Part shown: positions 963-45,830 of the stretch, in pieces | Layout: each line of letters begins with the position of its first letter | How positions within the stretch are numbered: position 1 is the stretch's first letter | Assembly (NCBI GenBank): GCA_963814545.1 | Contig: CAWFDC010000010.1 | Location: 3,786 to 67,785, forward strand | From: an uncultured Thermoleophilia bacterium | GTDB taxonomy: Bacteria; Actinomycetota; Thermoleophilia; UBA2241 | Length of the DNA stretch: 64,000 bases | Reading direction: 5' to 3' | The notes under the pieces: generated by a model | Seen by the model: only the letters and a program-made list of their open reading frames with translations | Database searches by the model: none | Told to the model about the DNA's origin: nothing | Program-made: the position numbers and the translations under genes

Positions 963-2342
<1,380 letters not shown>

Positions 2343-3341: not shown

Positions 3342-3351
3342 GACCCCGACT

Positions 3352-4938
3352 CTACAGCCGGATGCGCCGGACGTCGCGGACGTGCGGCAGGGCCCGGAGC
3401 GCGTCGAGCACCTCCGGCTTCGGCTCGGAGTCCACGTTGAGGAGGGACGCGGCCTCGGCCCCGGCGACGTCGCGGGAGAGCGAGATGCCGGCGATGTTCA
3501 CGCCCGCCTTGCCCAGCGCGGTCCCCACGTTCCCGACCACGCCCGGGGAGTCGTCGTTCACGCAGAGGATGATGTGACCCTCCGGGACGGCCTCGAGGTG
3601 GAACTGGTTCACCCGGACGATGCGGGCGTCGCGGTGCCCGAAGACCGTCCCCGCCACCGCCGCCTCCCCGCCCGCCCCGCCCACGGACACCGTCACCAGG
3701 CTGGCGTAGTCCTGGGACCCTGCCGCGCGCTCCTCCAGCACCGCGATCCCCCGATCGCGGGCGATGCCCGGCGCGCTCACCTCGTTCACCGGCGCGGTCT
3801 CCACCGTGGAGAGCAGCCCCTTCAGCACGGCGGACGTGAGGAGCCGCTGCGGGGCGTCGGCCACCTCGCCGGCGAAGGTCACCCGCACCTCGCGCACCCC
3901 GGCGGGGGCGATCTGCCCGACCAGCGAACCGAGCTTCTCGCAGAGCCTCAGGTAGGGGCCGAAGCGCTCCCGGGCCTCCTTCGACATCGAGGGGACGTTG
4001 ACGGCGTTCCGCACCTCGCCCCGCGTCAGGTACGCGGCGAGCTGCTCGGCGATCCCCACCGCGACGGCGGCCTGGGCCTCCTCGGTGGAGGCGCCCAGGT
4101 GCGGGGTGCAGATGAAGCGGTCCTGGGCGAGGAGCGGGTTGTCCGGGGAGACCGGCTCCTTCTCGAACACGTCGAGGGCCGCGCCCCCGACGTGCCCCGA
4201 GGCGAGCGCGTCGGCGAGCGCCTTCTCGTCCACCAGGCCTCCGCGGGCGCAGTTGACGAGGAGGACCCCCTTCTTCATGCGGGCCAGGGTGGCGGCGTTC
4301 ACGACGTTGCGGGTCTGCTCGGTGAGCGGCACGTGGAGCGAGACCACGTCGGCGCGGGCCCAGAGCTCGTCGAGGGTCACGAGCTCCACGCCGAGTTGTT
4401 CTGCGGCCTCGGCGGAGATGAAGGGGTCGTAGGCCACCACGCTCATCTTCATCGACCGGGCCCGGTCCACCACCACCGACCCGATGTTCCCGATGCCGAC
4501 CACCCCCAGGGTCTTCCCCGAGAGCTCGTGCCCCTGGAAGCGCTTCTTCTCCCACTTGCCGGCCTTGATCGAGACGGTGGCCTGGGAGATGTGCCGCGAG
4601 AGCGCGAGCATCATGCCGACGGCGAGCTCGGCCACGGTGACCGAGGACCCTCCCGGCGAGTTCATCACCACCACGCCCCGGCGGGTGGCCGCGTCCAGGT
4701 CCACGTTGTCGATCCCGACCCCGGCCCGACCCACCACGCGCAGGCGGGAGGCCTTCTCGAGCACGCGGGCCGTCACCTTGGTGGCGCTGCGGACCGCGAT
4801 GGCGTCGTAGTCGCCGATGGCCGCCTCGAGCTCCTCCGGCTTCATCCCGACCCGGACGTCCACCTCCAGGCCGGCGCGGCGCAGGACCTCGACCCCCTCG
4901 GAGGAGAGGTCGTCGGCGACGAGGACGCGGTGGGCCAT
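3352..4938 (-). CDS. serA: D-3-phosphoglycerate dehydrogenase
   Basis: 528 aa with the D-2-hydroxyacid dehydrogenase NAD-binding motif GVVGIGNIG and a catalytic region (NCARGGLVDE, TPHLGAST). The long C-terminal extension is typical of the ACT-containing long form. Confidence 0.95.
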   Translation of the reverse strand: MAHRVLVADDLSSEGVEVLRRAGLEVDVRVGMKPEELEAAIGDYDAIAVRSATKVTARVLEKASRLRVVGRAGVGIDNVDLDAATRRGVVVMNSPGGSSVTVAELAVGMMLALSRHISQATVSIKAGKWEKKRFQGHELSGKTLGVVGIGNIGSVVVDRARSMKMSVVAYDPFISAEAAEQLGVELVTLDELWARADVVSLHVPLTEQTRNVVNAATLARMKKGVLLVNCARGGLVDEKALADALASGHVGGAALDVFEKEPVSPDNPLLAQDRFICTPHLGASTEEAQAAVAVGIAEQLAAYLTRGEVRNAVNVPSMSKEARERFGPYLRLCEKLGSLVGQIAPAGVREVRVTFAGEVADAPQRLLTSAVLKGLLSTVETAPVNEVSAPGIARDRGIAVLEERAAGSQDYASLVTVSVGGAGGEAAVAGTVFGHRDARIVRVNQFHLEAVPEGHIILCVNDDSPGVVGNVGTALGKAGVNIAGISLSRDVAGAEAASLLNVDSEPKPEVLDALRALPHVRDVRRIRL

Positions 4939-4998
4939 GTGTTCTCCGGGACGGCGGCAGCGGGTGGACTCCCCGCTTAACGGCGCTCCGGGGGTGCG

Positions 4999-5676
4999 TC
5001 AACGTGCCGGCGCTGGACTCCCGGGCGGGAGGATCGCGCCCAGCGCCGCCGCCACCACCTGGCGCTTCATCCGTTCCAGGTCTTCCTCGCTGGGCTGGGG
5101 CGCCGTGAGCAGCCCGGTCAGCATGCCGGCCAGGTTCATGTCGAGCACGCCGAGCACGCTCGCCGCGGCCACCAGCGGCTCGAGGTCGGTGCGTAGGTCG
5201 CCCTCCCGCTGCCCGCGCTGCACCATCTCGGCGATGAGCCGCATGGCCGTCTCGAAGGTCTGGCGGGTGCTGCCGGCGCGTACGACGTCGGGCGACCGGG
5301 GAACCTCGAGGATGAGGACCCGGACCGCGGCGGGCGCGGTGCGGAAGACGTCCATGGCGAAGCGGATCACCGAGGCGATCTGCTCGGGAGCGCTGCCCGG
5401 ACCGTCGGCGATGGAGCGGATGGCGCCGAGGAAGATCCGCCATTGCTCGTCGAAGACACTCTCGAGCAACTCGTCCTTGTTCCGGAAGTAGTGGTAGACG
5501 AGGCCGTAGGCGACGCCGGCCTCGCTGGCCACGTCGGCGATGCGGCAGCCGTGGTACCCCCGCTCGGCGAAGACCTTGAGCGCGGCGTGGAGGATGGCGC
5601 GCCTCTTCTCCGGCTCCCCCTCGACGGGAGTGGCTGGGTGCGGCGCTTCGGTGCTTTTTCGCTGGCGTGCCACCAT
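4999..5676 (-). CDS. TetR/AcrR family transcriptional regulator
   Basis: Start chosen at ATG 5674-5676 (MVARQRK...) inside the long shadow ORF 4999..7659. The HTH region is RRAILHAALKVFAERGYHGCRIADVASEAGVAYGLVYHYFRNKDEL. Product is 225 aa. Confidence 0.9.
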   Translation of the reverse strand: MVARQRKSTEAPHPATPVEGEPEKRRAILHAALKVFAERGYHGCRIADVASEAGVAYGLVYHYFRNKDELLESVFDEQWRIFLGAIRSIADGPGSAPEQIASVIRFAMDVFRTAPAAVRVLILEVPRSPDVVRAGSTRQTFETAMRLIAEMVQRGQREGDLRTDLEPLVAAASVLGVLDMNLAGMLTGLLTAPQPSEEDLERMKRQVVAAALGAILPPGSPAPAR

Positions 5677-5738
5677 TGACTCCCGAGTCAACCGCAGGCT
5701 ACGCGCCCTCCCGGGGACAGTCAAACGGCCCGTAGGGG

Positions 5739-8315
5739 CTACGGGACCAGCGTCATGCCGGTGATGGCGGAGAGGTCGAGCCCTGCCGTCACGCCGTAGT
5801 AACCGCACTGGGAGACCTGCACCCGCACCAGGCCCCGCCAGCAGTTGCAGGGCGAGTTCCAGGAGGCGGTGACGGTGTTCTGCTGCATGGAGGGGCCCAC
5901 CGGGACGGGCGCGCCGCCGCTGCAGGGCGTGGCGTAGACGGTCCGCACGGAGAAGAGCGTGTCCCACTGGACGTCGAGGCCGCCGGCCACGTGGATCTTC
6001 AAGCCGGCGGTCCCCTGCCCGAAGGTCTGGAAGGGCACCGGGCGAGGGTCGAAGAGGGGGTCGAGCCCGGCCCTGAGCGTCGCCGAGGACGCCGAGGAGA
6101 TCGCCAGGAAGCCCAGCGTGAGCCGGTCGCCGCGGGAATCCGCGGCGGCGAGGTCGAGGCGGATCTCGGTGAAGTGGTCCAGGAACCCCGCGTCGAGGGA
6201 GCCCCAGGTCCCGGCTGCCGGCGCCGCGCCGAAGGCGAGGAACCGGGCCAGCACGAGCCCCTGCACCGGCCCCCACTCGGCGGCTCCCCGGACGAAGGAC
6301 TCGCCCAGCCGCCCGGTGGACAGGTCGAGGTCCTGCCCGACGTCGAGGTCGATCCGGGTCACGCTGGGCATGCCCTTCCCGGGGGCGACGAGCCGGTTGC
6401 GCAGCGAGATGCGCATCTGCTGGAAGCCGCCGGGCAAGGTGGCGGAGAGGGTCCGCAGCGGCAGGCAGGCGCCGGTGAGGCCGGACGGCGGAGCGAGGCA
6501 GGGAGCGCCGGGGAGGACGGGGGCTGCGTCCCGCTCGTCGTAGGCATAGGCGGGGAGCGGCGTGCCGCCGATGCCGGTGGATCCCCGCCACTCGACGCGC
6601 GGCTCGATGACGTGACGGAGGGTGTCGGGGCCGGCGCCGAAGGTGCGGGAGATGGAGGTTCCCAGGATGGCCCCGCCGCTCACCCACCCGCTCGCCAGGG
6701 CGGGCTGTGCGTCGGCGCCGAAGAGGTAGGCCGCGCCGTTCCCGGCCACCCACGGCTCGAGCAGGGCGACGCCCCCGAGGGAAAGGGGGGCGCGGAGCTC
6801 GGCGCGGGTCCAGGCCCGTGAGGCCGAGAGGCGCTGCCCGGCGACCCATGTGTCGCCCGGCGGCGGCGCCGGCCCCAGCCAGCCGCGCTGGCCGGGGCCG
6901 ATCCCGTTCACGCTCTGGTCGGTGATCCCGGAGAGGGGCGCGAAGCGGGCGATCCCTGCCTGGGCCGAGACCGCGAGCGGCCCCGCCACCTGGACCGGCA
7001 GCAGCGTCGCCGAGACGGCGGGGAGCCGGTGGAAGGAGGGCACGCTCCCGCCCAGGAAGCCGAAGGGGACGAGCGGGATCACCGGCTGGCCGGGAGGGCT
7101 CGCCTGGCCCAGGGTCCCGATCTGCTCGACGTAGGTCAGGTCCCCCTCGAGCAGCAGGTGGGGGAATGCGTACCCGGCCGCCAGCGAAGACCGGTAGTAG
7201 GGGGCGTCGCGCTGGAGGATGTCGCCCACGAAGTCCTGGGACCAGGCCGGGTCGCCGACCAGGAAGGCCTCGGCGTTCACGAAGCTCCCCGGGGACGGAC
7301 GCGCCTGGCTGCGCAGCGCGATCCCGGAGCGGACCCCGCTCTCCGGCTTCCAGCGATACGCCAGGGTGTCGTGCTGGAGGAGGAGCTTCGCCTCGCCCTT
7401 CACTCCGGGCAAAGGGGCCCAGCGGTACTCGATCGCGCCGCCCGCACCGCGCACCCCCGGGTTCTGCCCCTCGGCGATCCGGGAGTCCACCGTGGACCGG
7501 GACGGGCCGAAGGCGTAACCGGCGGTGAAGGTGAGGTCGTGGCTCTCCCCCAGGGTCAGGAAGAAGGGCTGGGCCAGCCACCAGCCGGTGCGCGAGCCGA
7601 CGTCCACCGTGGGAAAGAGGAAGCCGGTCTGCCGCCCGGAGAGCGGCACCTGCAGCCACGGGAGCGGCAGGACCGGGATGGGCTCGTCGATGAAGAGGAA
7701 GCGCGGGGTGACGTAGACGATCGGCCAGGTCAGGGTGGCGGTCTTCCCGGGCTCGATCTCGGCGCGCGCGGCCCGGATCTCCCAGGAGGGCGCCCCGCCG
7801 CAGCAGTCGCAGAGCGTGAGCCGGACCCCCTCGACCGAGAGGCGGGAGGGCGCGTCGCCGCCGGGAACCGCTCCCTCGGCCCGGTCGGCCCGCACCGAGA
7901 GGCGATTCCGGCCGTCCGTCCCGGCCTCGGCGATGGTGTCGTGGCGGGAGAGGTCGAGCGGCGTGTCCTTGTAGAAGGCCAGGACGCCGCGGGCCTCCCA
8001 GGCGCCGTCCAGGACCGCGTGGATTCCCTCGGCCGCGACCACCCTCCCCGGCCCGGTGAGGAGCACGTCGCCGGTGGCGTCCACCTCGCCGGTGCGCGGG
8101 TCGTAGCTGGCGGTCCGGGCGCGCAGCAGGACCGCCCCGCGGCGGAGCCGGACGCCGCCCTCGAGGAGGAATCGCTCGCGGGCCGCGTCGTAGGTGACGA
8201 GGTCGGCCTCGACCTCCACCGGTCCGCCCGGACCGGGGAGCGAGGCCGTGGCGCTCCGGGCCGCGCCCGGGAGGAGGAGCAGCAGCCCGGCGAGAAGAGC
8301 GAGCGGCCGCGTCAC
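5739..8315 (-). CDS. lptD: LPS-assembly outer-membrane protein LptD (OstA family)
   Basis: 858 aa with a signal peptide. The N-terminal OstA-like region reads VEVEADLVTYDAARERFLLEGGVRLRRGAVLLRARTASYDPRTGEVDATGDVLL. The long Gly/Tyr/aromatic-rich remainder is compatible with a beta-barrel. Confidence 0.8.
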   Translation of the reverse strand: MTRPLALLAGLLLLLPGAARSATASLPGPGGPVEVEADLVTYDAARERFLLEGGVRLRRGAVLLRARTASYDPRTGEVDATGDVLLTGPGRVVAAEGIHAVLDGAWEARGVLAFYKDTPLDLSRHDTIAEAGTDGRNRLSVRADRAEGAVPGGDAPSRLSVEGVRLTLCDCCGGAPSWEIRAARAEIEPGKTATLTWPIVYVTPRFLFIDEPIPVLPLPWLQVPLSGRQTGFLFPTVDVGSRTGWWLAQPFFLTLGESHDLTFTAGYAFGPSRSTVDSRIAEGQNPGVRGAGGAIEYRWAPLPGVKGEAKLLLQHDTLAYRWKPESGVRSGIALRSQARPSPGSFVNAEAFLVGDPAWSQDFVGDILQRDAPYYRSSLAAGYAFPHLLLEGDLTYVEQIGTLGQASPPGQPVIPLVPFGFLGGSVPSFHRLPAVSATLLPVQVAGPLAVSAQAGIARFAPLSGITDQSVNGIGPGQRGWLGPAPPPGDTWVAGQRLSASRAWTRAELRAPLSLGGVALLEPWVAGNGAAYLFGADAQPALASGWVSGGAILGTSISRTFGAGPDTLRHVIEPRVEWRGSTGIGGTPLPAYAYDERDAAPVLPGAPCLAPPSGLTGACLPLRTLSATLPGGFQQMRISLRNRLVAPGKGMPSVTRIDLDVGQDLDLSTGRLGESFVRGAAEWGPVQGLVLARFLAFGAAPAAGTWGSLDAGFLDHFTEIRLDLAAADSRGDRLTLGFLAISSASSATLRAGLDPLFDPRPVPFQTFGQGTAGLKIHVAGGLDVQWDTLFSVRTVYATPCSGGAPVPVGPSMQQNTVTASWNSPCNCWRGLVRVQVSQCGYYGVTAGLDLSAITGMTLVP

Positions 8316-8318
8316 CCG

Positions 8319-9596
8319 CTACTTGCCCGGCTTGGCCGGGATGGCTGCCTTCGCCGGCGCCGGGGGCGTCGGGGGCGCTGCCGGCCGGTCGAAGTCGAGG
8401 GACAGCGTCGTCCCCTCGATCCGCTGCTGCCAGGCCACGCGCTCGCGGAGCCGGATCTCGAGGACGTAGCTCTTGCCCTGCCGGACCGGGGTGACCTTCG
8501 CCACCGCCGTCGGGAAGAAGGAGGTGTCGAGGGCCTTGAGGTCGTTCTGGAGCGGGACCCGCGTGTTCGGGAACTCGACCCGGACGAGCTTCTCCTGGGG
8601 CTCGGAGACGCTGAACTTCGGGGCCGAGCGGAGGCGGATGAAGACCCGGGACCCGGTCGCGGTCTGCTTGAAGCCGAGGAACTCGACCTCGTTGCGCTCG
8701 GCTGCGACGGGCGCCGGCTTGGCGGCGGGCGTCGGCGTCGTGGCGGCCGGAGCCTGTGCCGGAGCCGGCTTCGGTACGGATGCGACGGCAGCGGCCCTGG
8801 CGGCGGCCTCCTTCGCGTCGGCGGCGGCCCTGGCTTCCGCCGCGGCTCGTGCGTCGGCAGCGGCCCTGGCCTCGGCTGCGGCGCGGACCTCCGCAGCGGC
8901 CTTCGCGTCGGCGACGGCTCGCGCCTCCGCGGCCGCCCTGGCGTCGGCAGCGGCCCTGGCTTCCGCCGCGGCCTGCGCCTCCCTGGCCGCCTCGGCCTCC
9001 GCGGCAGCCTTGGCCTCCGCGGCAGCCTCGGCCTCCGCAGCGGCAGCGGTCGCCGCGACGGCAGCGGGAGCGGCCGCAGGCGCCGCAGCGGGAGGCGGCG
9101 CCGCAGGAGCGGGCGGTGGCGCCGCGGCGACCGCCGGTGCAGGCGCGGCGCAGGCGCGGGGGCGCGGAGCCGGAGGCGGGGGAGCCTGTGCGGCGGCGAC
9201 CATGGTCCCGGCCGAGGGCAGCACGCGGAGGACGATCCGGTTTCCGGAGACCACCACGTCGGGCGGTTCGACGACGCTGGCGAACGTGACGGTGATGCGC
9301 GCCGTGGCGTGCGTTCCTTCACCGAAGGAGATGGCGTTCACCTCCTTCACCTGGCCGACGCCCGGCACCTTCCTCCTCGCCCCGTCCAGCCCGGCCTCCG
9401 AGACGTCGACCACGAAGCGTGGGGGATTGACGAGCGAAAAAGTCGTGAACGACGGGGCCTTTGAGGCTCCGATGGTCACCTCGGCGACGCCGCCCTTCTC
9501 GGCGACCTCGATGGCGGTGATGCCGTTGATGCCGGTGGCGAACGCCGCGGCAGGAACGAGGATGAGTGCAGCGGAGAGTAGCGTGGACTTGCGCAT
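8319..9596 (-). CDS. Secreted protein with two AMIN-like domains separated by an Ala/Glu/Arg-rich repeat
   Basis: Start set at ATG 9594-9596 (MRKSTLLSAALILVPAAAFA signal peptide). The N-terminal (ITAIEVAEKGGVAEVTIGASK...RFVVDV) and C-terminal (VEFLGFKQTATGSRVFIRL...LVRVEFPNTRV...LSLDF) segments resemble AMIN domains of PilQ/AmiC. Confidence 0.7.
   Translation of the reverse strand: MRKSTLLSAALILVPAAAFATGINGITAIEVAEKGGVAEVTIGASKAPSFTTFSLVNPPRFVVDVSEAGLDGARRKVPGVGQVKEVNAISFGEGTHATARITVTFASVVEPPDVVVSGNRIVLRVLPSAGTMVAAAQAPPPPAPRPRACAAPAPAVAAAPPPAPAAPPPAAAPAAAPAAVAATAAAAEAEAAAEAKAAAEAEAAREAQAAAEARAAADARAAAEARAVADAKAAAEVRAAAEARAAADARAAAEARAAADAKEAAARAAAVASVPKPAPAQAPAATTPTPAAKPAPVAAERNEVEFLGFKQTATGSRVFIRLRSAPKFSVSEPQEKLVRVEFPNTRVPLQNDLKALDTSFFPTAVAKVTPVRQGKSYVLEIRLRERVAWQQRIEGTTLSLDFDRPAAPPTPPAPAKAAIPAKPGK
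8787..9044 (-). repeat. In-frame Ala-rich coding repeat (about 11-residue period, AAEARAAADAR-like) inside the AMIN-domain gene
   Basis: The translation reads AAEAEAAAEAKAAAEAEAAREAQAAAEARAAADARAAAEARAVADAKAAAEVRAAAEARAAADARAAAEARAAADAKEAAARAAA. The underlying DNA shows repeated gcggc.gcc.tggc units. Confidence 0.8.
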
Positions 9597-9669
9597 GGAG
9601 CGCTCCCGTCGGGCGTTTGCGGGAAGATAGCACGCACCCAGCAGGGACCCACAAAGGAGAAGCGGAGGC

Positions 9670-10119
9670 CTACATCTCCTCACCCGCGAGCCGCTGCCGC
9701 GCCTCGCCGACCAGGTAGAGGGAGCCGGCCACGCAGACCAGCGCCCCGTCCAGGGCCGCCGTGCGCGCGCAGGCGAGCGCCTCCGGGAGCGAGACGTGGA
9801 CGTCGGCATCGGCGCCGAGCGCCCGGGCCACCTGGACGTAGCTGCCGGGGTTCCGGGCCCGCGGCGAGTCGGGGGCGACAAGGTGGAGGCGGCGGGCTGC
9901 CGGGGCGAGCGCCGAGATTATTCCCTCGTGGTCCTTGTCGGACAGGACCCCGAACACCAGTTCCACGGGGCGCGACGGGTGGAGCACCGGAAGCGCCGCA
10001 GCCAGCGCCGACGCGCCGTCCGGGTTGTGCGCGCCGTCGAGCAGCACGCCGCCCACCTCCTCCATGCGCCCCGGCCAGCGCGCCGATGCGATGCCGGATC
10101 GGATCTCCTCCTCACCCAC
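9670..10119 (-). CDS. folC: Folylpolyglutamate synthase/dihydrofolate synthase, C-terminal domain only (5' part missing at the block B/C join)
   Basis: RWPGRMEEVGGVLLDGAHNPDGASALAAAL...VFGVLSDKD...VCVAGSLYLVGEA is the Mur-ligase C-terminal domain. The ATP-binding and central domains are absent, and the listed start is only a GTG at the edge. Confidence 0.8.
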   Translation of the reverse strand: MGEEEIRSGIASARWPGRMEEVGGVLLDGAHNPDGASALAAALPVLHPSRPVELVFGVLSDKDHEGIISALAPAARRLHLVAPDSPRARNPGSYVQVARALGADADVHVSLPEALACARTAALDGALVCVAGSLYLVGEARQRLAGEEM

Positions 10120-13100
10120 CCGGTCGCCTTCTGGGCCTCCTGGACACCTTGGGGGTGCCCGTGCTCTCCGCCCAGAGCCTGGTGATCGACCTGGCCGACC
10201 CGCTCCGCGGCGAGGCGTTGATGACCCACGCAGGCCTCGGACCCCTGCTCGACTACCTGGCCGGACAGCCGGAGCGGATCCTCACGCCCCTGCCCAGCTT
10301 GGCCATCTTCCCCGGCGAGGACGGCGTCCGAAGGCCCCTGCGTGAGACGCCGGGGGGCCCCTCGACCGTCTGGCGCCCTCCCAGCGGGCCGCTCGGCCGC
10401 TGGCTGCGGTCCATGACCGGAGGCAAACCGCCGCTCCTGGAGACCGCCCTCGATGCCTCCCACGGCGATCTACTCGATCGGCTCGGCGTGCGGAAGAAGG
10501 GCTTGGATGATCTCCTCGATGCTCTTCAAGTAGGCTCCCTCGACCCAAGCGATGGGGATCTGGAAGCCCTGCACCTCGCCTTGGAGCAAGGCCGCGCCGA
10601 GCTGACCCCTCGCCAAGGGGCCCGGCTCACCGAGGCACCGATCTTCCCCACCACCGCGGGAGACCGTCGTCCGCTCCGCGGTCCGGAGCGGGCTCTCCAC
10701 ACCGACGACCCAGAGCTGCGCGCGCTTTTTCCGCAGGCGCCCTGGTTGCTGCCCGCGGTGGCCTCCCTCTCCTTCCTCGCCCAGCTCGGGGTCCCCCAGC
10801 TCGGCGCACGCGACGTGGTCGATGCCCTTACAAGAGACGCAAAACCTCCAGGCGGGCTCCCCACGCCTCCGGACCTGCGGCGGCTCTACGCCTACCTCGC
10901 CCGTCGAGCGCCAACGCTGGATTCCGCCCGACTCGACCGCCTGGCCAGTGTTCCGATTTGGCTGGACGCCGACGGAGCTCCGCGCCCCCTCCAAACCCTG
11001 CGCCTCCCCCCCACAGAACCGTCCCTTGTGGCGCTGTGGGCCGCCTGGCCAACGGCGGGCCTCATCGAGATCCACGCCGAGGAAGGCCTGTCCGCCGTCG
11101 CGCTCGCCGAGGCGCTTCACCTCGGCGGGGCGCTCCGACGCTCCGACTTCCCGGGCTTGGTCGAAGAGCTCCAGTCCTCGTCGCCCCCCGCCCTGGTCGA
11201 AGTGACCCTGCCGCCCCTGTGGCCACTCTTGGGGGACGCCCTGAACGCGGCCGCCCTATCCCTGCCAAGATCCGCTCTGGCGACCCTGAGCGACCTCCCG
11301 CTGTACCCGGCGACAGACGGCCGGAAGCTGCCTCTCGGGGACTGGGAGGCTCCTCCCTTCGACCCCACGCGCTGCGCACCGGCCGCGGGGCCCATCGCCG
11401 AAGCCCTGGCCCACGGTTCTCGGCCGCTCCTCCTCGAGGGCGACGCGCACCGGCTCGAGCCCTTCCTGCGAGCCCTGGGCGCTCGTCCTGCGGATCTGCC
11501 GGCCTTGGTGGAGGCCGTGGAGACCGATGCCGCGCTGCGCACCGCCGCGGCCTGCGAAGCCGTGCGTAGAGCCCTTTGGACGGAGCGCGAGATGCTCGCG
11601 CACGCCTTTCCCTCCCGAAGCGCCGAGGCGTCTGAGCGCGGGCATCCACGCTTGCGAGCCCTCCCCTTGTGGCCGAGCCAGGGAGGGCGGTTGCGCCCGA
11701 GCTCCGCCCTGGTGCGCCCCTCGGCCCTCGAAGAGGCCCTCGGAGGGTCGGGCCTCGGACACGCCCCGGGCGCACCTGACGACCTGCTCGACGAGGTGGC
11801 GGCCCCCGAAGCGCGAGATATGGAGGGGGTCTTCGGCTTCCGCAGCCCTGCCCTCCTCGTGGTGGAGCGGCTGCGCGCCGAGGCCCTGCCCGGCGCACCC
11901 CTCGCCGAACAGCCCGCGTTCCTTAGGCGCCCCGAGGGCCTGGGACCCCTCGTGGGGCTGCTCTGCGCCTCGCTGGGCCGGGAGGCCCTCTACTCCCTCC
12001 CCATCTCCATCGATGCCCGGGGCTGCCTGGTGTCGAGGCGGCTCCACCGCGCCACTCCTATGGAAATCGCCCTCGCCAAGGGGTTGCCCGTGGAGCTGGA
12101 GCTGGCCGATCCCCTCTGGGCGGAGCAGGCCTCGGCCGTGGACCCAGACCTCGCACCGCGCCTCACCCCTCGGCGCCTTCTGCTGGCACTGGCCGAGACT
12201 GCGCGCGACATGGTGTCCGTGGAGACCCATCCTCGCTTTGGTGATCCGCAGGCGAGAGCCCGCCTCTACGCCTGGATCCTCGAATCTCGCAACGTCATCG
12301 CCGAGGACGATCAGGCCAGGGGCCCCCTCGGCCAGGCCTGCCTCTTCGCCAACCAAAAGGGGCAGCTCGTCTCTCCTCGCCAACTCCTATACGACCCCGC
12401 GCTGCCCGAGGTGTTCGCTCCCGAGCGCCCCGCCGAGGAGCTGCCCGAGACGCTCCTCGCGTGGCTGCAAGAGACCTTTCCCCTGGACGATCGCCAGGTG
12501 GATCGTCTCGTGGACCACCTGGTGGCCCTCCACGAGGAAGCCGTGGCGGCACAACAAGGCGCCCGTTCCGCGGAGCTGCTGGACCTCATGGCGCGACTCC
12601 TTGGGCTCGCGGAAGAGGGCCCTCTCCCCGAGCTGCCCCGCCGACTCAAGCTCCACCGGCGGATCCGCGTCGAGACGACGGCGGGCTCCTGGGTGCGGCC
12701 CAGGCGCCTCCTGGCCCCGGATCCTGATCACGGAGCACTCGTGGAAGCATTCCTCACCGCGCCCCCGGAGCGGGCATCGGCGAGCTACCGACCCCAACGG
12801 TTGCGACGATTGCTCTCGGCCCTCGGCGCCGCGGACGACCTCCGGCCAGAGACGCTCCTCTCCCTCCTGGAGGGGGGCGTGGGCCTGCGGCCAGGCTTGG
12901 GGGCTGGGCTCGCCCTGGCGCGCTACCTGGCCCGCCGCGTGGCCGAGGAGCCGGGCCTCGCCAAGGCGCTGGGCCTGGGGGAGCGGTGTTTCATCCCCGA
13001 TGGCCATGGCGCCCTCCGACGCCCCGCAGAGCTGACCTGGCCGTCGGCCGAGGCCTGGGCCGTGCTGGGCGATCGTCCCGAGTGCTACCCCCACCCGGAG

Positions 13101-15860
13101 TTCTTCCTCACCGTCCCGGCTGCGCTGGCCCAGAGCTTGCCTTTCCGACCCTTGGAGGCCGCACTGCTGGGCGAGGTGCAACAGAGCCTCCAGAGAGCGT
13201 CCGAGCGCAACGAAGTGCCTCTCGCCGCACTCGCCTGGATCGAGTCGGGCCTGTCCGGCAGGCGCCTCTCGGCCCAGGACGTGCGAGAGGCCCTCGGGCC
13301 CCTGCCGTTCCTCAGGGACACCCAGGGCCGCCTCCGCAGGGGAGCCGATGTCTTCCGGGTGGAGGTGGCGAGCCTGTTTGGCGCCCGTCGAGGACACTGG
13401 CCCGAGGCGCAGCGGTTCCGCCGCCTCGCCGATGCCCTGGGCATCGCTCGCGAGCCCGGGCGGCGGGAACTCCTGCGCTTTCTCGCCGAGGTCACCCAGG
13501 ACGCGCTCGGGCAGGGACCAGAAGCCCTCGCCGAGGCCGAGCCGGAGCTCTTACGCTGCCTGCCGCGCTGCTTGGCGAGGCTCGCAGAGCTGGGCGACCC
13601 CCTGCCGCACCCCCTGGTGCTCGCCGTCATGGACTTCGCGCGGCCCGGGGAGGAGATCCTGACCCTCTGTCTCGACGACGATGACCGCCTCTGCCTGCCC
13701 GAGCCCCGGGAGTTGGCGGAGGCGGCCAGGGAGCGGGGCATCTCCCTGCGCGTGCCCCTGCTGAGGGATCAGGCCGCGGCCCTTCACGAGGCGCTGGGGC
13801 GCGCTGGCTGCCCGACCCTCGGGGAGCGCTTCACCCCAGACCCGCTTCCCAGTAAGCTTCCCCGTGAGCTCACCTCCACCCATGCGCTAGCCGTAGCCCG
13901 CCTGGAGCGCGGCCTCGCGACCCTCGCCCGACGGCGTCGGGATCTGCCGCACGCGCACCCCCAGGTGCCGCCGTCCCGCTGGCGCCAGAAGGAGCTGCCC
14001 AGCGAGATCCACGTGGTCTCACCCCTGGTGCTCCGGGGGTCTCTCGCCGGAGTGCACCTGGAGGTGGAGGTCGCTGTCGCGCTCGAGGGCAAGCGGCTGC
14101 TCGCCACCCCCACGGGCCTCGAGGATTTGGATCGCGTGGCCGAAGTGCTGACGAGGGAGCGGCTACTCCGCGGCTTCGCCGACCCCGCGGTGGTGGCGGG
14201 CGTCGCGGACCTCCTGGAAGTGGGCTGGGGCTCGACAGCGCCGAGCGCACCCGAACCCGGGCCTCACCGCTCCGAGCCCGCGCCTGCGCCGCGTCCCGCT
14301 CCCGCCGTAGACGCAGCCCCTGACACTCGGAAGAGGACCAAGACGCCAACTCGCCCCTCGACGCCTCCACCACCACCCGAACCACGACGGGCCCCTCCTC
14401 CCCAAACGGCCAGCGCCCGATCGGAGCCGCCGGCAGAAGAAGAAGGAAAGAGCCTGCTCGGCCGGTTTCGGCGGTGGCTCAAGGGTGATGACTCCGCCAG
14501 GGAGCCCCGGGACCCGGATCGCGCCGCCGCGCCGCCGCCCGGTGCCGCCGGACACGGCGCCAGACACGACGGGCAGGCTCGAGGCCCAGGACAGGCGCGG
14601 CCGGCCCGTGGCACAGACGATCCAGGGGCCGCGCCCCCCTCCCACGGCCGCTTCTTCACGCCGCGGGACTCGGTCACCACCCAGCTCGAGGGAGGCCCCA
14701 GCTGGCTGCGGGACCGGGATCGGCCTCCCGCCTATGGCTTCGCCTTCGCCCCAGGACGGGTGCCTCTGCCCTACCTCTATGCTCCCCTGGTTCTGGCCGA
14801 TTGCTTCGAGCCCCGCAGCCAGCGCTGGCTGCCCACGGCCCTTCCTGCGGGTCTCGACACCCCTTCCGAGCGCCGGGAGGGACTGCTCGCCCTCGAAGGC
14901 CGCATCCCAGCCGGAGAGCTCCAGCTCCCGCTGCCCCTGTACGGCCGCCTGGAGTCCCTAGAAGGGCCCGTGCGAATTCTCGAATCCCGCCCCGGCAGGC
15001 TCCTGTGCTCGGTCGCCGCGCCGACCGAAATTTCCCTGCGCGTGAGCCTCGGTGGCGCACCCCGCTTCGAAAGCCCCGGGGACGCGGCTCTGGCTACCTG
15101 GGCCAGCGCCCAGCTCCCCCCTCATCTCCTCGAGGCTACGGTGCCCGATGACGAGCTCCCCGAGCCCGTGCTCGCCTTCGCGGCTGCCCTGGCCACTTCC
15201 TCGGCGCCTCCCCTCACGCGAGCCCTCGGAGTGAGGTCCTTTGTCCAGCAGCATTACCGCTATGATCCCTCCTACCTCGAGGACCCAGAGCTCGCCCGCT
15301 GGCTCTCGAGCCTCGCACGTGGCAGGGCCAACGCTCACCTGGCGTTGCTCCACGCTGGCCGGGACGCCCGCCACCTGGGCGCCGGCGTGTGCTACGAGCT
15401 CGGAGTGCTCTGCTGCGAGCTGCTCAGACGTGTCGACGTGCCCGCGGCCGTGGCCACGGGATGGACCTTTGATCGCGGACGGGTGGATGAGCCCGATCAC
15501 CTGTGGGCCATGGCCCTGTTGCCCTCGGACCTGGGCCCTCGCTGGCTCCCCCTGGACGCCTCCACCACCCGAGAAGGCAGGCCCCTGCACGCCTCGGATC
15601 GCCCCGCCGGCCCCTGGCGCGCCAAGGCTCCCCGGGGAGCGGGAAAAGTCCCAGGAAATCCACGCTGGTCCGAGCCAGCCGCCGGGCCTGAAGTGGATAC
15701 GAGCCTACCCCTGCCCGACCTCCTCCGGGTGGCACGCCACGTCGAGCGGCTCACCGGCGCCTCAGGCCTGGACGAAGCCGCGTTGCGCCAGCGCTGCCGG
15801 GCCCTCCTGGACGACCCGGACAAGGCCCGTGCGCTGCTGGAGTTGCTTCGATCGAGGTAG
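10086..15860 (+). CDS. Very large (>=1900 aa) repeat-module protein with a C-terminal transglutaminase-like cysteine-protease core; 5' end not in this block
   Basis: Uninterrupted 1924-codon ORF with protein-like composition. It has at least 10 modules carrying L-x2-LG[VA] and [ILV]P[ILF][FWY]P-x2-G-x2-RP motifs. The Cys-His-Asp core is GAGVCYELG ... EPDHLWAMAL ... WLPLDAS. Its first ~12 codons are antisense to folC, so the real N-terminus is missing. Confidence 0.8.
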   Translation: MRCRIGSPPHPPGRLLGLLDTLGVPVLSAQSLVIDLADPLRGEALMTHAGLGPLLDYLAGQPERILTPLPSLAIFPGEDGVRRPLRETPGGPSTVWRPPSGPLGRWLRSMTGGKPPLLETALDASHGDLLDRLGVRKKGLDDLLDALQVGSLDPSDGDLEALHLALEQGRAELTPRQGARLTEAPIFPTTAGDRRPLRGPERALHTDDPELRALFPQAPWLLPAVASLSFLAQLGVPQLGARDVVDALTRDAKPPGGLPTPPDLRRLYAYLARRAPTLDSARLDRLASVPIWLDADGAPRPLQTLRLPPTEPSLVALWAAWPTAGLIEIHAEEGLSAVALAEALHLGGALRRSDFPGLVEELQSSSPPALVEVTLPPLWPLLGDALNAAALSLPRSALATLSDLPLYPATDGRKLPLGDWEAPPFDPTRCAPAAGPIAEALAHGSRPLLLEGDAHRLEPFLRALGARPADLPALVEAVETDAALRTAAACEAVRRALWTEREMLAHAFPSRSAEASERGHPRLRALPLWPSQGGRLRPSSALVRPSALEEALGGSGLGHAPGAPDDLLDEVAAPEARDMEGVFGFRSPALLVVERLRAEALPGAPLAEQPAFLRRPEGLGPLVGLLCASLGREALYSLPISIDARGCLVSRRLHRATPMEIALAKGLPVELELADPLWAEQASAVDPDLAPRLTPRRLLLALAETARDMVSVETHPRFGDPQARARLYAWILESRNVIAEDDQARGPLGQACLFANQKGQLVSPRQLLYDPALPEVFAPERPAEELPETLLAWLQETFPLDDRQVDRLVDHLVALHEEAVAAQQGARSAELLDLMARLLGLAEEGPLPELPRRLKLHRRIRVETTAGSWVRPRRLLAPDPDHGALVEAFLTAPPERASASYRPQRLRRLLSALGAADDLRPETLLSLLEGGVGLRPGLGAGLALARYLARRVAEEPGLAKALGLGERCFIPDGHGALRRPAELTWPSAEAWAVLGDRPECYPHPEFFLTVPAALAQSLPFRPLEAALLGEVQQSLQRASERNEVPLAALAWIESGLSGRRLSAQDVREALGPLPFLRDTQGRLRRGADVFRVEVASLFGARRGHWPEAQRFRRLADALGIAREPGRRELLRFLAEVTQDALGQGPEALAEAEPELLRCLPRCLARLAELGDPLPHPLVLAVMDFARPGEEILTLCLDDDDRLCLPEPRELAEAARERGISLRVPLLRDQAAALHEALGRAGCPTLGERFTPDPLPSKLPRELTSTHALAVARLERGLATLARRRRDLPHAHPQVPPSRWRQKELPSEIHVVSPLVLRGSLAGVHLEVEVAVALEGKRLLATPTGLEDLDRVAEVLTRERLLRGFADPAVVAGVADLLEVGWGSTAPSAPEPGPHRSEPAPAPRPAPAVDAAPDTRKRTKTPTRPSTPPPPPEPRRAPPPQTASARSEPPAEEEGKSLLGRFRRWLKGDDSAREPRDPDRAAAPPPGAAGHGARHDGQARGPGQARPARGTDDPGAAPPSHGRFFTPRDSVTTQLEGGPSWLRDRDRPPAYGFAFAPGRVPLPYLYAPLVLADCFEPRSQRWLPTALPAGLDTPSERREGLLALEGRIPAGELQLPLPLYGRLESLEGPVRILESRPGRLLCSVAAPTEISLRVSLGGAPRFESPGDAALATWASAQLPPHLLEATVPDDELPEPVLAFAAALATSSAPPLTRALGVRSFVQQHYRYDPSYLEDPELARWLSSLARGRANAHLALLHAGRDARHLGAGVCYELGVLCCELLRRVDVPAAVATGWTFDRGRVDEPDHLWAMALLPSDLGPRWLPLDASTTREGRPLHASDRPAGPWRAKAPRGAGKVPGNPRWSEPAAGPEVDTSLPLPDLLRVARHVERLTGASGLDEAALRQRCRALLDDPDKARALLELLRSR

Positions 15861-16265: not shown

Positions 16266-18170
16266 ATGAAGGAAACCCACACCTCCCTACCCAAGCCGGA
16301 CCCCACCATGACACACAGGGTCCAAAATCGTCTCGGGCTCGAGAAGAGCCCCTACCTCCTGCAGCACCAGCATAACCCAGTGGACTGGTTCCCCTGGGGA
16401 GAGGAGGCCTTTGCGCGAGCCCGGGCCCTGGACAGGCCGATCTTCCTCTCCGTGGGCTACTCCACCTGTCATTGGTGCCACGTCATGGAGCGCGAGAGCT
16501 TCGAGGATGAGCTCTTGGCCTCCCGCTTGAACCAGGTGTTCGTGCCCATCAAAGTGGACCGCGAGGAGCGTCCGGACGTGGACGACTTGTACATGACCGT
16601 CTGTCACCTCCTGACCGGCAGCGGAGGCTGGCCACTCACCGTGCTGCTCACGCCCAACCTCGAGCCCTTCTTCGCCGGGACGTACTTCCCCAAGGAGTCC
16701 CAACTCGGTCGGATCGGCCTGGGGGAGCTCGTGGATCGCGTGGAGGCCCTGTGGAGGGATCGGAGGGAGGACGCGATCCAATCGGCCGAGCGCCTGCGGA
16801 CCGCCCTGATCGAGGAAAGCTCGCCGGCCTCCGGCGAGGCGCTGGGAGAGGACGTGCTCGACGCCGCCCGGGCGCAGCTCGGGCTAAGGTTCGACCCCCG
16901 CTCCGCCGGGTTCGGCACCGCACCCAAGTTCCCCACGCCCCACAACCTGATCTTCCTTCTACGCCAAGGTCACCGGACCGGAGACGCTGAGGCCATCCGC
17001 ATGGCGCGAGCCACCCTGGACGCCATGCGCCGAGGGGGCATCTTCGACCAGGTGGGCCTCGGCTTCCACCGCTACAGCACAGACTCGAAATGGCTGGTGC
17101 CCCACTTCGAGAAGATGCTCTACGACCAGGCCCTGCTCGCGTTCGCCTACCTCGAAGCAGCGGCGCTCACCCACGAACCCTCCTACGGCCGCACGGCCGA
17201 AGAGATCTTCACGTACGTGCTGAGGGATCTCCGCGGCGCCCACGGGGCCTTCCTCTGCGCCGAGGACGCAGACAGCGAGGGGGAGGAGGGGCGATTCTAC
17301 GTCTTCACCGCCGCCGATCTGCGAGAGGCCCTGCCCGACAGTCTCTTCCCCCTGGCCCAAGACGCCTGGGGCGTCACCGAGGCCGGGAACTTCTCTGGGG
17401 AGGCGAGTGGGCGACCGAGCGCCGCAAACATCCTTCACCTGCCCCACCCGCAGGAGGCCCTCGCCTCGCGGCACGGGCTGTCATCCGAGACCCTGGCCTC
17501 TCGCCTGGAGGAGGCGCGGGCGATCCTCTTGGCGACTCGCGAGCGCCGGGTGCGACCGTCGCGGGACGACAAGGTGCTCACCGATCTGAACGGCCTGATG
17601 ATCGCGGCCCTCGCCCGTGGCGCGCAGGTGCTTTCCAGGCCGGACCTCGCCCGGGTGGCCCGGGAGGCTGCCGACTTCCTCTGGTCCACCCTCCGCAGGC
17701 CCCGGGTCGAAGGCACCCGCCTGTGGCACCGCTACCGCGACGGCGAGGCCGGCATTGCCGGATACTTGGACGACTACGCCTTCACCATCTGGGGCCTGTT
17801 GGAGCTCCATGGCGCCACCCTCGACCCGGTCTTGCTGGGGCGCGCCCAGGCGCTGCAGGCCACGCTGGACCACCACCACTGGGACGCGGAAGCGGGGGGC
17901 TACTTCTTGGCCGCCGATGACGCCGAGGCCCTGATCCTGCGCCGAAAAACCGTGTACGACGGAGCCATCCCGTCGGGCAACAGCGTCTCCGCCCAGAACC
18001 TCCTCCGCTTAGGGCGCCTCACCGGAGACGCCCGGTACGAAGCCCACGCCGCCGCCTTGCTCCGGGCCTTTGCGGGCCAGGTCCGCGCCGCGCCCATGGG
18101 GCACTGCTTCCTGCTCCTCGGGCTTGCTCAGGCCACTGACGCGAGCCAGGATCGAGTTAGCCCCGGTTGA
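16266..18170 (+). CDS. Thioredoxin-domain protein of the DUF255/YyaL family (thioredoxin fold plus alpha/alpha-barrel, N-acylglucosamine 2-epimerase-like)
   Basis: [56 protein letters not shown] is the family hallmark. 634 aa. ATG 16308 is an alternative start. Confidence 0.85.
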
Positions 18171-19723: not shown

Positions 19724-21918
19724 ATGATGCCCGGTGCGCCGAGATCAACACCCGTGACCGAGCCCCGTGAACAGAGCGCCGTCCGATGGGCCGAGCGCAT
19801 CGCCGATCTTCTTTGCTCGGGTCCCGTCGTGGGCGCGGTCATGGGGGTGATCCTCTTCGTCCTCGGGGCCCTCTCCCTGGATAAGCTGAGCTACTTCGGC
19901 CACGCGTCCGACGAGCTGCGTCGTCTCGCCATCCGGGTGTACGGCCCGCAGGTGGCCGCCGAAGCGGTGCGCATCCTCGGCCTCTACGTCGCCGTCGGCC
20001 TGGTGGGCGGGCTCCTGTCGAGCGGCTTGAGCCGACTGAGAGACCTCCTCCGGGGCCGCAGACCGACCTCCCGGCTCTGGCGCGTGGGACGTCACCTGCT
20101 CGTCATCGGCGGCCTGCACGGCTACTTCCTCGCCCGCTCAATGGTGGTGTACCCGCAGCTCTACACCGAGACCTTCTACGCGCGCGGAGGCCTCAGGCGG
20201 GAAATACAGGTGTTCCTGACCGACTGGATGCCGCCTGGCCTGCTGGACGCTGGGCTCGCCCTGACCCTCGCGCTCTTCGTGCTGCTCCCCGCGCTGCGAC
20301 TCCTCGGCCGCCTCCGCCTGCCAGCCATCGGCCCACGGCCGCTGGTGGGAGGCGCCGCGATCCTCGGGCTTCTCGCCCTGGCTGTGGGTGCCGCCGGGAT
20401 CTCCACCGCGCCGCGCCGAGCCAAGGACAACCAGGGGCCCAACATCGTGATCCTGGCCGTGGACAGCCTGCGGGCAGATCGCCTGGAGAAGGACCGCTAC
20501 GCGCGCGTGGCCCCCCGGATGCGACGCCTGGCCCGCCAGGGCGTCCGGTTCCAGAACGCCTACGGCACCCTGGCGCGCACCTTCCCCTCCTGGGTGACGC
20601 TCCTCACGGGCCGAGAGCCCCACGACCACGGGATCCGCCACATGTTTCCCACCTGGGAGGCCAGGCGGCGCGCGGGCCTGGCCCTGCCCCGCCACCTGGC
20701 AGAGGCGGGCTACCGCACCGCCGTGGTGTCCGACTATGCTGGGGAGGTCTTCGGGCGTATCGACCTCGGCTTCCACCACGTGGACGTCTCGGCCTTCTCC
20801 TTCTACGAGATCGTCCGGCAACGGGTGATCTCGGCGCACACGCATCTGCTGCCCTACTTGGCCACGGGGCTGGGAAGACGCCTGGCGCCTCCCATGGGTG
20901 GCCTCCCGGAAAACGCCGATCCCCTCCTCTTGGCCGATCGGGTAATCCGGATGCTGGACCGCGTGGCGAAAGGGAAGCGGTTTCTCCTCGTGGCCTTCTT
21001 CTCCGCTTCCCACTTCCCCTACGCGGCGCCCTATCCGCACTACCAGCGCTTCACCGATCGCGACTATCGCGGCCCCTACCGGTATCACAAGCAGCGGATC
21101 CTCAATGAAGGGCCGCCCACCGGAACGGACATCCGCCACATGCGGGGCTTGTACGACGGCTCCGTGTCCGCCGCGGACGAGGCCATCGGCCGGGTGCTCG
21201 ATCACCTCCGGCGGATCGGCGTGGAGAAGAAAACCATCGTGGTGCTGACCGCGGACCACGGGGAGAACCTCTACGAGGCCGGGCTCGGCATGGGGCACGG
21301 CGACCACCTGCGGGGCGACCCGGCCACGCGTCTCCCGCTCACCCTGTACGATCCACGGCAGCCACGCCCGGGCCGCGTGGTGGACGACATCACGCGGGAC
21401 GTGGACCTCGCGCCCACCCTGGCGGCCCTAGTGGGTCGACCCCTGCCGAAGGTGTCGGGGCGGGATTCTCAGGCCCCAGATGGCGGGACAGCCTGGGCCG
21501 AAGGACCGCGCCGCGTTCATGGAGACCGGCCTCTGGTTCACCCACGACCTGCCCGAGGTGGGGGAAGATATGCGCCTGTCCTACCCCCCCGTGCTGGGCG
21601 GCCTGGTGACCATGGACGAAAAGAGGAACGGAGATTCTCGTGCTCTCCCCGCAGTACGAGGAGCTCGTGGTGGCGGCCAAGCACCGCGCCATCCGCACCA
21701 AGGACTGGACGCTCGTCTACGTCCCCCTGCGATCCGGGGTGCGGACCCTGCTCTTCGACGTCAAGCAGGATCCCTTCTGCCTGCAGGATGTCTCGGTCCA
21801 GCACCCCGACGTGACGCAGCGCCTGTCCCGACGGCTCCTCGCCTGGATGCGCGAGGAGCGGGGCTCACTGCAAGTGGGGAGCTACGTGCTGCCCGCTCCG
21901 AGGGCGGGCGAGCCATGA
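19724..21918 (+). CDS. Membrane-anchored alkaline-phosphatase-superfamily ('sulfatase') enzyme, interrupted by two frameshifts
   Basis: N-terminal TM segments, then GPNIVILAVDSLRADRL, ARTFPSWVTLLTGREPHDHG and VLTADHGENL. The frame changes near 21460 (G runs) and near 21620 (A run). The three pieces are ORFs 19631.., 21480.. and 21640..21918. Start taken at ATG 19724. Confidence 0.75.
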
Positions 21919-27720: not shown

Positions 27721-27777
27721 GGTATCAGTCTATCCCAAGTGACATCCGAATAGGAAGCCGAGGCTGGATCGGTGGCC

Positions 27778-32980: not shown

Positions 32981-33056
32981 GGGGCGGCTCCCCAGGGCCG
33001 GCGCCGAGGGCGCGGCCGCGGTCCAAACGCCTCACCCCGCATGGGCGACGCGAGGT

Positions 33057-45758: not shown

Positions 45759-45830
45759 GACGCTAGCAACGCGCGAGGGCGCCAGGGGATTCCCCGTGAA
45801 TGCTGATCCTTGCGTCAATGCCGTCCACCC

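Follow-up and report, generated by a model that had tools for sequence, protein, structure and literature searches.

An apparently truncated member of a predicted sacsin-type ATPase, tandem-repeat and transglutaminase-fold family on a metagenomic Thermoleophilia contig

Introduction

Bacterial proteins with a sacsin-type ATPase occur broadly in Proteobacteria as generic polypeptides of about 1050 aa (PF25794 with or without PF13020; NF047352), some of which end in PF13020, which we take to be the NO VEIN C-terminal domain. A named relative is TmtA, the defence protein of the Tiamat system (Millman et al. 2022, as cited in PMC12926258), and Tiamat has been listed among the systems with a PD-(D/E)XK nuclease fold (preprint 10.1101/2024.10.26.620412). 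Eukaryotic sacsin has an architecture described in terms of SIRPT and SRR units (PMC3629688), with three ATPase-containing super-repeats together with ubiquitin-like (UBL), DnaJ and HEPN domains. Here we analyse a stretch of 64,000 nucleotides (nt) of contig CAWFDC010000010.1 from an uncultured Thermoleophilia bacterium, referred to as the window, in which one very long open reading frame (ORF) near position 10,000 is related to these proteins. We find that the ORF corresponds to the rear part of a larger gene whose intact members, centred on Myxococcota, are predicted to couple a sacsin-type ATPase (of which the bacterial relatives include Tiamat) to a catalytic transglutaminase-fold domain by way of a newly delimited tandem domain, and that its front part was likely lost in assembly.

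Results

The long ORF lacks the front of a larger gene

The ORF can begin at an in-frame ATG at 10086 (1924 aa) or a GTG at 10155 (1901 aa), and over 99% of its length it is colinear with its closest relatives, P0002 (2654 aa, 76-77% identity) and P0003 (2663 aa, 65-66% identity, from a Polyangia metagenome-assembled genome, MAG). Hidden frameshifts are excluded because identity to P0002 stays at or above 50% in every 40-residue window, so that an earlier description of the locus from sequence alone (the first-pass annotation), which gave the ORF more than 1900 codons and no frameshift, was right on both points. The start coordinate chosen there, 10125, is exactly where homology to the family begins.

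The relatives of the ORF are consistently larger than it is at the front. A search of a 5.8-billion-protein collection returned 22 relatives, all 2034-2938 aa long, nearly all with the Pfam domain SACS (PF25794) and most also with Transglut_core. In the family alignment, 648-783 residues precede the counterpart of ORF residue 14 in every one of the 22. An exhaustive phmmer search of 1.84 billion cluster representatives, with the repeat region of the ORF as query (1200 residues starting at nt 10125), matched 140 clusters; for most full-length members, residues ~4-20 of the query pair with residues ~650-790. The other proteins in these 140 clusters that start at or after the cut point are only short fragments (98-1518 aa), none of them a headless protein of comparable length. 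Consistent with this, tblastn places P0002 residues 736-2116 on window positions 10125-14267 and finds no match to the first 735 residues of P0002 anywhere in the window.

The missing part is the one that contains the ATPase. P0002 and P0003 have SACS around residues 233-328 and Transglut_core close to the C-terminus, and P0002 additionally matches NCBIfam NF047352, the 'sacsin N-terminal ATP-binding-like domain'. The heads of the homologues carry near-invariant ELLQNAEDAGA, HDGxPF and IGFFGVGFKSVY motifs, and the family profile matches the crystal structures of sacsin sr1 (5v44-5v47) with E about 1e-7. The loose likeness to sacsin that had been remarked upon for the repeats is thereby borne out through these homologues. 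A Pfam scan of the ORF itself gives a sole match, Transglut_core (PF01841), and an NCBIfam scan gives none; a six-frame search of the whole window for GHKL motifs (ELLQNAxDA, GxGFKS) found none, in agreement with the first-pass annotation, which saw none in the part present. By these three scans the ORF is without the SACS/GHKL ATPase that defines the group, which its orthologues P0002 and P0003 have. These comparisons show that the window copy is a truncated derivative of a SACS-repeat-transglutaminase gene, without its first ~735 codons, ATPase included. An N-terminus had already been suspected missing, and the ATPase-bearing head is indeed absent; however, it does not lie just outside the coordinates first read, since the gene is cut at 10113-10124. 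Whichever the cause of the cut, the ORF in its present form is no native stand-alone gene, and even if expressed such a copy would be unregulated or inert.

At the cut, the ORF faces a folC-like gene on the opposite strand (Table 1). The folC-like sequence (IRSGIASARWPGRMEEV...LLDGAHNP) extends to about nt 10104-10113, and DNA similarity to the orthologues at two related loci, L001 and L002, begins at about 10122-10125. The end of folC and the start of the ORF's homology thus fall within about 10 nt of each other, and therefore two divergent genes both lose their 5' parts there. The MlaD, MopE and OmpA genes found upstream of the intact gene in relatives are absent from the window, and downstream synteny with the relatives is kept (a GYF_2 protein, a small ORF and two sulfatases). 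A DUF255/thioredoxin (DsbH-like) gene at 16266-18170 stands between the long ORF and the GYF_2 gene; it is present in the closest relative, L001, and absent from L002-L004. By exact protein look-up, P0001 and the DsbH-like, AMIN and PCC proteins have no record, and the GYF protein occurs on two short Logan contigs only.

The cut coincides with one of several breaks in composition

Median GC content at third codon positions (GC3) of the coding ORFs is 0.95 in 963-10100 and in 50400-64000, and 0.825 in 10120-49580 (Mann-Whitney p 5e-6). The long ORF thus opens a middle block of 39.5 kb (10.12-49.58 kb) whose GC3 matches that of the L001 and L002 lineage (0.81-0.89). At the right edge of the block, GC rises near 49600 from about 0.55-0.63 to 0.785, within a chimeric ORF (49015-50181, minus strand) that joins RlmL_1st and THUMP domains (residues 5-154) to the start of a NuoM-like Proton_antipo_M subunit. 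The right flank has about 87-94% DNA identity to four independent metagenome contigs (L013-L016), which align exactly to 49576/49577 and, past this breakpoint, carry the S-adenosylmethionine (SAM)-binding motif of rlmL (DPLCGSGT), which is absent from the window. Both borders of the block therefore interrupt genes mid-domain. Another junction lies at about 600-700, where nt 1-610 (29-38% GC, about 32%) abut DNA of 73-76% GC. On the low-GC side are three minus-strand ORFs (34-213, 116-298 and 232-513), frameshifted pieces of an N6-adenine DNA methyltransferase with an NPPY motif; the high-GC side has an SRPBCC-like ORF (701-937) and a purA-like gene (963-2258). This junction resembles a further chimeric join or a very recent insertion of foreign DNA.

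The housekeeping genes of the block include a class I aminoacyl-tRNA synthetase, pyruvate:ferredoxin oxidoreductase, a sigma-54 activator and NuoM/N-like subunits, some of them frameshifted. We find no integrase among the block ORFs scanned, no tRNA in the window and no direct repeats at the block borders, and we therefore discarded a mobile island as an account of the block. The frameshifted neighbours that the first-pass annotation had pointed out are real: a sulfatase has two frame changes at 21441-21635 relative to its L002 and L003 orthologues, the class I aminoacyl-tRNA synthetase is divided among at least two ORFs (32836-35540), and Proton_antipo_M subunits are broken into several ORFs at 45763-49117 (about 45.7-49.5 kb). 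The pattern looks like indel sequencing errors. Yet the intactness of the 5.8-kb ORF among such neighbours is statistically unremarkable, because the ~5-7 events in the other 34 kb of the block predict only about one frameshift per 5.8 kb (P about 0.35-0.4 for none). As an observation apart, the stretch 47800-49576 inside the NuoM-like gene has a GC content of 0.54-0.59 versus 0.66-0.70 in the rest of the middle block, and may be a further sub-block of different origin.

Cause of the truncation

We think it likely, from the sequence around the junctions, that the cut at 10113-10124 is an assembly chimera. A chimeric, error-prone assembly is the simplest account because there are three abrupt composition breaks in 64 kb, both block edges interrupt genes, and frameshifts are concentrated in the block. 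Two observations sit uneasily with it: the flanks on the two sides of the block share one composition, as if foreign DNA had entered one genome, and the retained 5.8 kb is free of decay, which fits either an artefact or a very recent event. The insertion point is in turn countered by contig L013, where the 3.9 kb after rlmL have no similarity to the left flank, so that adjacency of the two flanks in a relative is not supported. A biological truncation, in which a deletion, rearrangement or illegitimate insertion of a ~39.5-kb foreign fragment left a young 5'-truncated pseudogene beside a folC remnant, strikes us as unlikely. The cut genes are divergent, and a single deletion could have taken both 5' ends; the equal flank GC3 of about 0.95 is what insertion into one genome would give; the concentration of frameshifts could be decay of acquired DNA; and an identical GYF protein on two short independent Logan contigs indicates that the population from which the block derives is real. 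However, frameshift-broken housekeeping genes such as the aminoacyl-tRNA synthetase and the NuoM/N-like subunits fit indel sequencing errors better than decay, the remnant shows no decay at all, none of the scanned ORFs is an integrase and neither a tRNA nor a border repeat accompanies the block, and the same 64 kb contain a third junction, to DNA of 32% GC. A 32-mer spanning the junction is also absent from JGI metagenomes, which is weak evidence.

It is highly improbable that the ORF is instead a native, functional headless variant, that is, a repeat scaffold with a transglutaminase enzyme and no ATPase. Such a variant would account for the open frame with its two in-frame starts, for an intact catalytic triad, and for a ratio of nonsynonymous to synonymous substitution (dN/dS) of 0.26. 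But its first 13 codons are antisense folC, its breakpoint coincides with the composition shift, and among the 140 clusters there is no other long headless protein, just as the first search gave only proteins of at least 2034 aa. No sigma-70-like promoter is present in 9400-10400, which is weak evidence for this phylum. The preferred explanation is thus a gene cut by chimeric assembly, and we lean towards this explanation as a whole, with its family identity, its chimeric truncation and the mechanism proposed below for intact members. For annotation, a reading of the ORF as a native protein of repeat scaffold and protease should be avoided; the ORF is a headless piece of a larger gene, and the window copy is a truncated instance that is probably artefactual. 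More generally, with at least three abrupt composition breaks on the contig, inference from the gene neighbourhood to the left of the ORF is unsafe.

Tandem repeats of about 110 residues

The ORF contains 8-9 tandem copies of a module of ~110 residues, with a period of about 100-125 aa (Table 1). The first-pass annotation had described at least ten copies of a two-part module, in which an LxxLG[VA] motif is followed by a hydrophobic-Pro turn and a Gly...Arg-Pro motif. Both motifs do belong to one true repeated domain, and all eight hydrophobic-Pro...G...RP strings listed at that time fall in the eight strong copies, but the count of ten does not hold. Regular expressions for the two motifs under-count the copies relative to hidden Markov models (HMMs). 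An HMM built from copies 1-5 only recovers untrained copies at residues 690-781 (independent E-value, iE, 2e-5) and 905-996 (iE 0.009), versus 0.074 for the best reversed decoy. After two iterations, the repeat HMM finds 8 copies in the ORF at iE <=1e-7 and one weak copy (797-904, iE 0.024) that is no better than the best reversed decoy (0.022). Across the family, this HMM gives 206 real matches at iE<0.01 versus 0 decoy matches. Similarly, when 120-residue slices of the family alignment were compared profile to profile, 26 of 231 pairs reached a probability of at least 90% (best 98.3%, E 1e-14), versus 0 of 231 at 50% or more with reversed target slices (best 33%). By both methods the repeats are real. 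A further copy is found upstream in the full-length relatives (P0002 residues 624-737), and therefore the cut in the ORF falls near a repeat boundary.

An AlphaFold2 model of residues 14-1113 (23-sequence alignment; mean predicted local distance difference test score, pLDDT, 88; predicted template-modelling score, pTM, 0.45) builds the repeat unit from 4-5 helices followed by a beta-hairpin, with LxxLG[VA] as the first helix and hydrophobic-Pro...G...RP as the hairpin. Each of copies 1-5 consists of the LxxLG[VA] helix, 3-4 more helices and a hydrophobic-Pro...D/G-G...R-P beta-hairpin. Residues 583-676, between the two blocks of repeats, are modelled as a helix and a hairpin, possibly a degenerate copy. 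The order of secondary-structure elements in the modelled unit gives an impression, and only that, of a winged helix; the repeat profile finds nothing under E 0.09 among PDB sequences. Against the 5.8-billion-protein index, a profile of 39 repeat units gave one fragment match, as its low identity does not pass the word prefilter.

The module does not seem confined to this family. The repeat HMM matches bacterial SACS proteins of ~1050 aa, with or without PF13020, at about residues 420-530, 530-655 and 720-830 (iE 1e-6 to 0.05; best decoys at least 0.5), and models of TmtA weakly match residues 966-1167 of the window protein (TmtA positions 835-1033, E 7e-5 to 2e-7). Because of these two sets of matches, the 110-aa module seems to be an amplified form of a post-ATPase element general to bacterial sacsin-like proteins. 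As a defined unit, the module offers a handle on the post-ATPase regions of these proteins.

A disordered linker and a transglutaminase-fold tail

Behind the repeats and a conserved region, the Pro/Arg/Ala-rich linker of about 200 residues seen in the first-pass annotation is recovered as a low-complexity segment with 18% P, 14% A and 13% R; pLDDT is <50 over most of residues 1430-1538. The tail that follows had been described as a papain/transglutaminase triad core, and several lines of evidence agree with this. Pfam PF01841 matches residues 1703-1825 with 26.3 bits (gathering cut-off 23); in relatives the score is 20.7-38.5 bits, with the L010 protein (20.7) under the cut-off. The triad of Cys1769 (nt 15390-15392), His1805 (15498-15500) and Asp1824 (15555-15557) is invariant in 14 aligned family sequences. 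The AlphaFold2 model of the C-terminal part (mean pLDDT 72, and about 70-95 across most of model residues 110-400) consists of a beta-sandwich, the transglutaminase core and three terminal helices. Its top Foldseek match is TgpA (6g49; E 4e-8, probability 1.0, template-modelling score normalised by target 0.55), and the further best PDB matches are TgpA 6g4h and the putative cysteine protease 3isr (E 9e-5, probability 1.0). Profile score, conserved Cys-His-Asp and core fold together place the ORF tail, as judged from sequence and model, in the transglutaminase-like superfamily, and the domain is apparently catalytically competent. Relative to the L001 orthologue, dN/dS in the transglutaminase region is 0.12, versus 0.26 for the ORF overall.

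The family domain and its structural neighbours TgpA (Pseudomonas aeruginosa) and 3isr have in common a beta-sandwich joined to a transglutaminase core with a Cys-His-Asp triad. However, sequence identity is just 13-18%, and whereas the solved TgpA domain is periplasmic (PDB entry title), the family domain is carried on a predicted cytoplasmic ATPase-repeat scaffold. Neither the ORF nor the family has a signal peptide or a transmembrane-like segment (maximum KD19 1.5-1.7), and therefore the intact protein is predicted to be cytoplasmic.

Architecture and distribution of intact members

From the family alignment and the models, we propose that the full-length protein consists, in order, of a ~225-aa N-terminal helical region, a GHKL ATPase of the sacsin type (Bergerat fold) and its middle domain, an array in which 8-11 tandem copies of the 110-aa helical and beta-hairpin module are detectable, a conserved helical region, a ~200-aa disordered Pro-rich linker, a beta-sandwich, the TgpA-like transglutaminase-fold Cys-His-Asp enzyme and a helical tail. 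Full-length members are 2000-2950 aa long, and those members that are named or placed belong to Myxococcota, with a few MAGs of Eremiobacterota. Database names of the relatives are 'hypothetical protein' or 'transglutaminase domain-containing protein', and a literature search found no description of a fusion between a sacsin-type ATPase and a transglutaminase-like domain.

We took eight family loci from species-representative genomes, including a Polyangiaceae MAG, the cultured Paraliomyxa miuraensis SMH-27-4, a Sandaracinus MAG, two Deltaproteobacteria MAGs and an Eremiobacterota MAG. Per locus there are 6-11 repeat matches, with the lowest count on a gene cut by a contig end, and Transglut_core is present in 6 of the 7 loci scanned with Pfam. 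Paraliomyxa miuraensis, as a cultured carrier (intact orthologue at locus L007, 7670-16327), opens the family to experiment. In close relatives the intact gene has a stable chromosomal position, with MlaD-MlaD-MopE-OmpA upstream and sulfatase genes nearby. Distant members have no common neighbour gene; a survey of neighbourhoods thus yields shared neighbours for close relatives only, and we rejected a conserved operon partner beyond them. The lack of conserved neighbours is consistent with an autonomous single-gene unit.

Some members have only the N-terminal part. P0169 (1060 aa), P0172 (652 aa), P0174 (596 aa) and P0158 (1009 aa) consist of a SACS head and 2-4 repeats; they were called on long contigs (65 kb to 1.66 Mb), and P0172 and P0174 are explicitly not labelled partial. 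Frameshifts may often split the giant gene in MAGs, or these may be natural split forms.

Comparison with Tiamat, generic bacterial SACS proteins and sacsin

We compared the family with Tiamat using the PADLOC TmtA models PDLC03964-03972. TmtA is the strongest named relative of the family's head: P0002 residues 228-706 match TmtA positions 14-510 with E down to 9e-49, and the best P0002 match spans TmtA positions 69-457 of 1486. Like TmtA, an intact member is one large polypeptide whose N-terminal part holds a sacsin-type GHKL ATPase, the post-ATPase regions are weakly similar, and neither has an obligatory partner gene. Among the differences, the TmtA profile is matched over only about a quarter to a third of its length, and the family is about 1000 aa longer, with its tandem repeats; it ends in the Pro-rich linker and transglutaminase-fold enzyme, with no nuclease family found by Pfam; its chromosomal context, one of envelope, sulfatase and housekeeping genes, does not look like a defence island; and the window copy has no ATPase. 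Because the TmtA profile is covered only in part and the tail differs, neither the ORF nor its family is, on sequence grounds, a member of Tiamat.

The generic bacterial SACS proteins have the same ATPase head as the family. They show 2-3 weak, above-decoy matches to the repeat HMM after the ATPase, far fewer copies than in the family, and where the family ends in a transglutaminase core, some of them end in PF13020. They are also spread broadly in Proteobacteria, in contrast to a family centred on Myxococcota. Sacsin resembles the family in being a giant protein around an Hsp90-like HATPase domain, and in both long repeat-containing regions follow the ATPase (srX and sr3 in sacsin). However, the three ATPase-containing super-repeats of sacsin contrast with a single ATPase in the family, followed by a tandem array of the 110-aa module and a tail of transglutaminase fold, and Pfam finds no UBL, DnaJ or HEPN domain in the orthologues. 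In overall architecture the family is not sacsin-like.

A proposed role for intact members

Based on this architecture, we regard the intact family as a putative, uncharacterised variant of the bacterial sacsin-like/Tiamat-like ATPases with a peptidase or cross-linking tail. The first-pass annotation had offered a scaffold that presents a protease or cross-linking domain; scaffold and enzyme domain are both retained here, but that picture was incomplete, with the scaffold in intact members hanging on a GHKL ATPase. If the head behaves like other GHKL ATPases, binding and hydrolysis of ATP there could drive dimerisation or conformational switching, the repeat array might serve as a ligand-binding or oligomerisation scaffold, and the Cys-His-Asp domain, free to move on its flexible linker, would cleave, deamidate or cross-link a protein target. 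Such a protein would amount to a Tiamat-like sensor-effector in one polypeptide, with a transglutaminase-fold enzyme in place of the TmtA tail. We put forward this ATPase-gated effector, with its Tiamat-like effector swap, only tentatively. Several results weigh against it: a literature search found no described mechanism for Tiamat or any family member, a Foldseek search with the whole ~1100-residue array against PDB and BFVD returned generic solenoids only (best E 3e-3, template-modelling score about 0.1), and a stable envelope and sulfatase context in close relatives, with none common to distant ones, is not like that of a defence island.

The same stable context would suit a housekeeping role, in which the intact protein is an Hsp90/sacsin-like chaperone or protein-modifying enzyme of the large myxobacterial proteome, with repeats that bind clients, and not an immune or conflict protein. 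The family is apparently distributed mostly vertically in Myxococcota, PADLOC TmtA coverage is only partial, and eukaryotic sacsin is described as a chaperone (PMC3710099, PMC3629688). We give this role about as much weight as the gated effector and likewise hold it doubtful: Pfam finds no J-domain, UBL or other chaperone-network domain, a tethered catalytic Cys-His-Asp effector is more typical of effector deployment, and distant members are without conserved neighbours, as for an autonomous single-gene system. A bolder extension of the gated-effector proposal, which we offer as a long shot, is that the intact family is an undescribed class of single-polypeptide conflict or programmed-death effectors in bacteria of multicellular habit. 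In these, a sacsin/Tiamat-type ATPase would read a ~10-unit array of the new 110-aa helix-hairpin module and release a tethered transglutaminase-fold protease or cross-linker, and the same module would build the post-ATPase regions of bacterial sacsin-like proteins and possibly srX/sr3 of sacsin.

Positions of features and other observations in the window

Table 1. Positions of the long ORF, its parts and the borders of the middle block in the window
Feature	Position	Strand	Basis or remark
Left breakpoint	10113-10124		folC coding signal ends, family homology starts, GC3 about 0.95 to about 0.82
Right edge of block	49576-49577		rlmL/THUMP gene (minus strand, 50181 down to 49577) cut just ahead of SAM-binding motif
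folC/Mur-ligase fragment	9670-10119	-	Full Mur_ligase_C profile; middle domain and N-terminus missing
Long ORF	10086-15860	+	1924 codons, ATG start, single uninterrupted frame
ORF codons 1-13	10086-10124	+	Non-homologous read-through, opposite strand of folC fragment
SACS-repeat-transglutaminase gene, 3' 72%	10125-15860	+	Family homology
Repeat copies 1-5 (aa 12-129, 123-229, 222-338, 333-458, 452-582)	10119-11831	+	Repeat HMM, model
Repeat copies 6-9 (aa 677-800, 797-904 weak, 901-1010, 1006-1110)	12114-13415	+	Repeat HMM, model
Post-repeat conserved region (aa 1111-1340)	13416-14105	+	Conservation; overlaps weak PADLOC TmtA match at aa 966-1167
Pro/Ala/Arg-rich low-complexity linker (aa 1341-1545)	14106-14720	+	Composition; predicted disordered
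Beta-sandwich domain (aa 1551-1656)	14736-15053	+	AlphaFold2/Foldseek; ahead of transglutaminase core, as in TgpA
Transglutaminase-fold core (aa 1666-1829)	15081-15572	+	Pfam, AlphaFold2, Foldseek, triad
C-terminal three-helix tail (aa 1876-1923)	15711-15854	+	AlphaFold2 model; kept in close relatives

The middle block also holds a Peptidase_C39-like protein (26650-27729, minus strand) and an ADP-ribosylglycohydrolase (41037-42176, plus strand), with no evident tie to the long ORF. In the right flank, a segment of ~2.3 kb (53082-55365, with an ORF of 639 aa at 53144-55063) has no counterpart in the otherwise colinear contigs L013-L015. In the left flank, the ORF at 8319-9596 (minus strand) encodes an AMIN-domain protein with a signal-peptide-like start (MRKSTLLSAALILVPAAAFA) and, separating the AMIN domain from the C-terminal part, a long repetitive spacer rich in Ala (AAAEARAAADA...).

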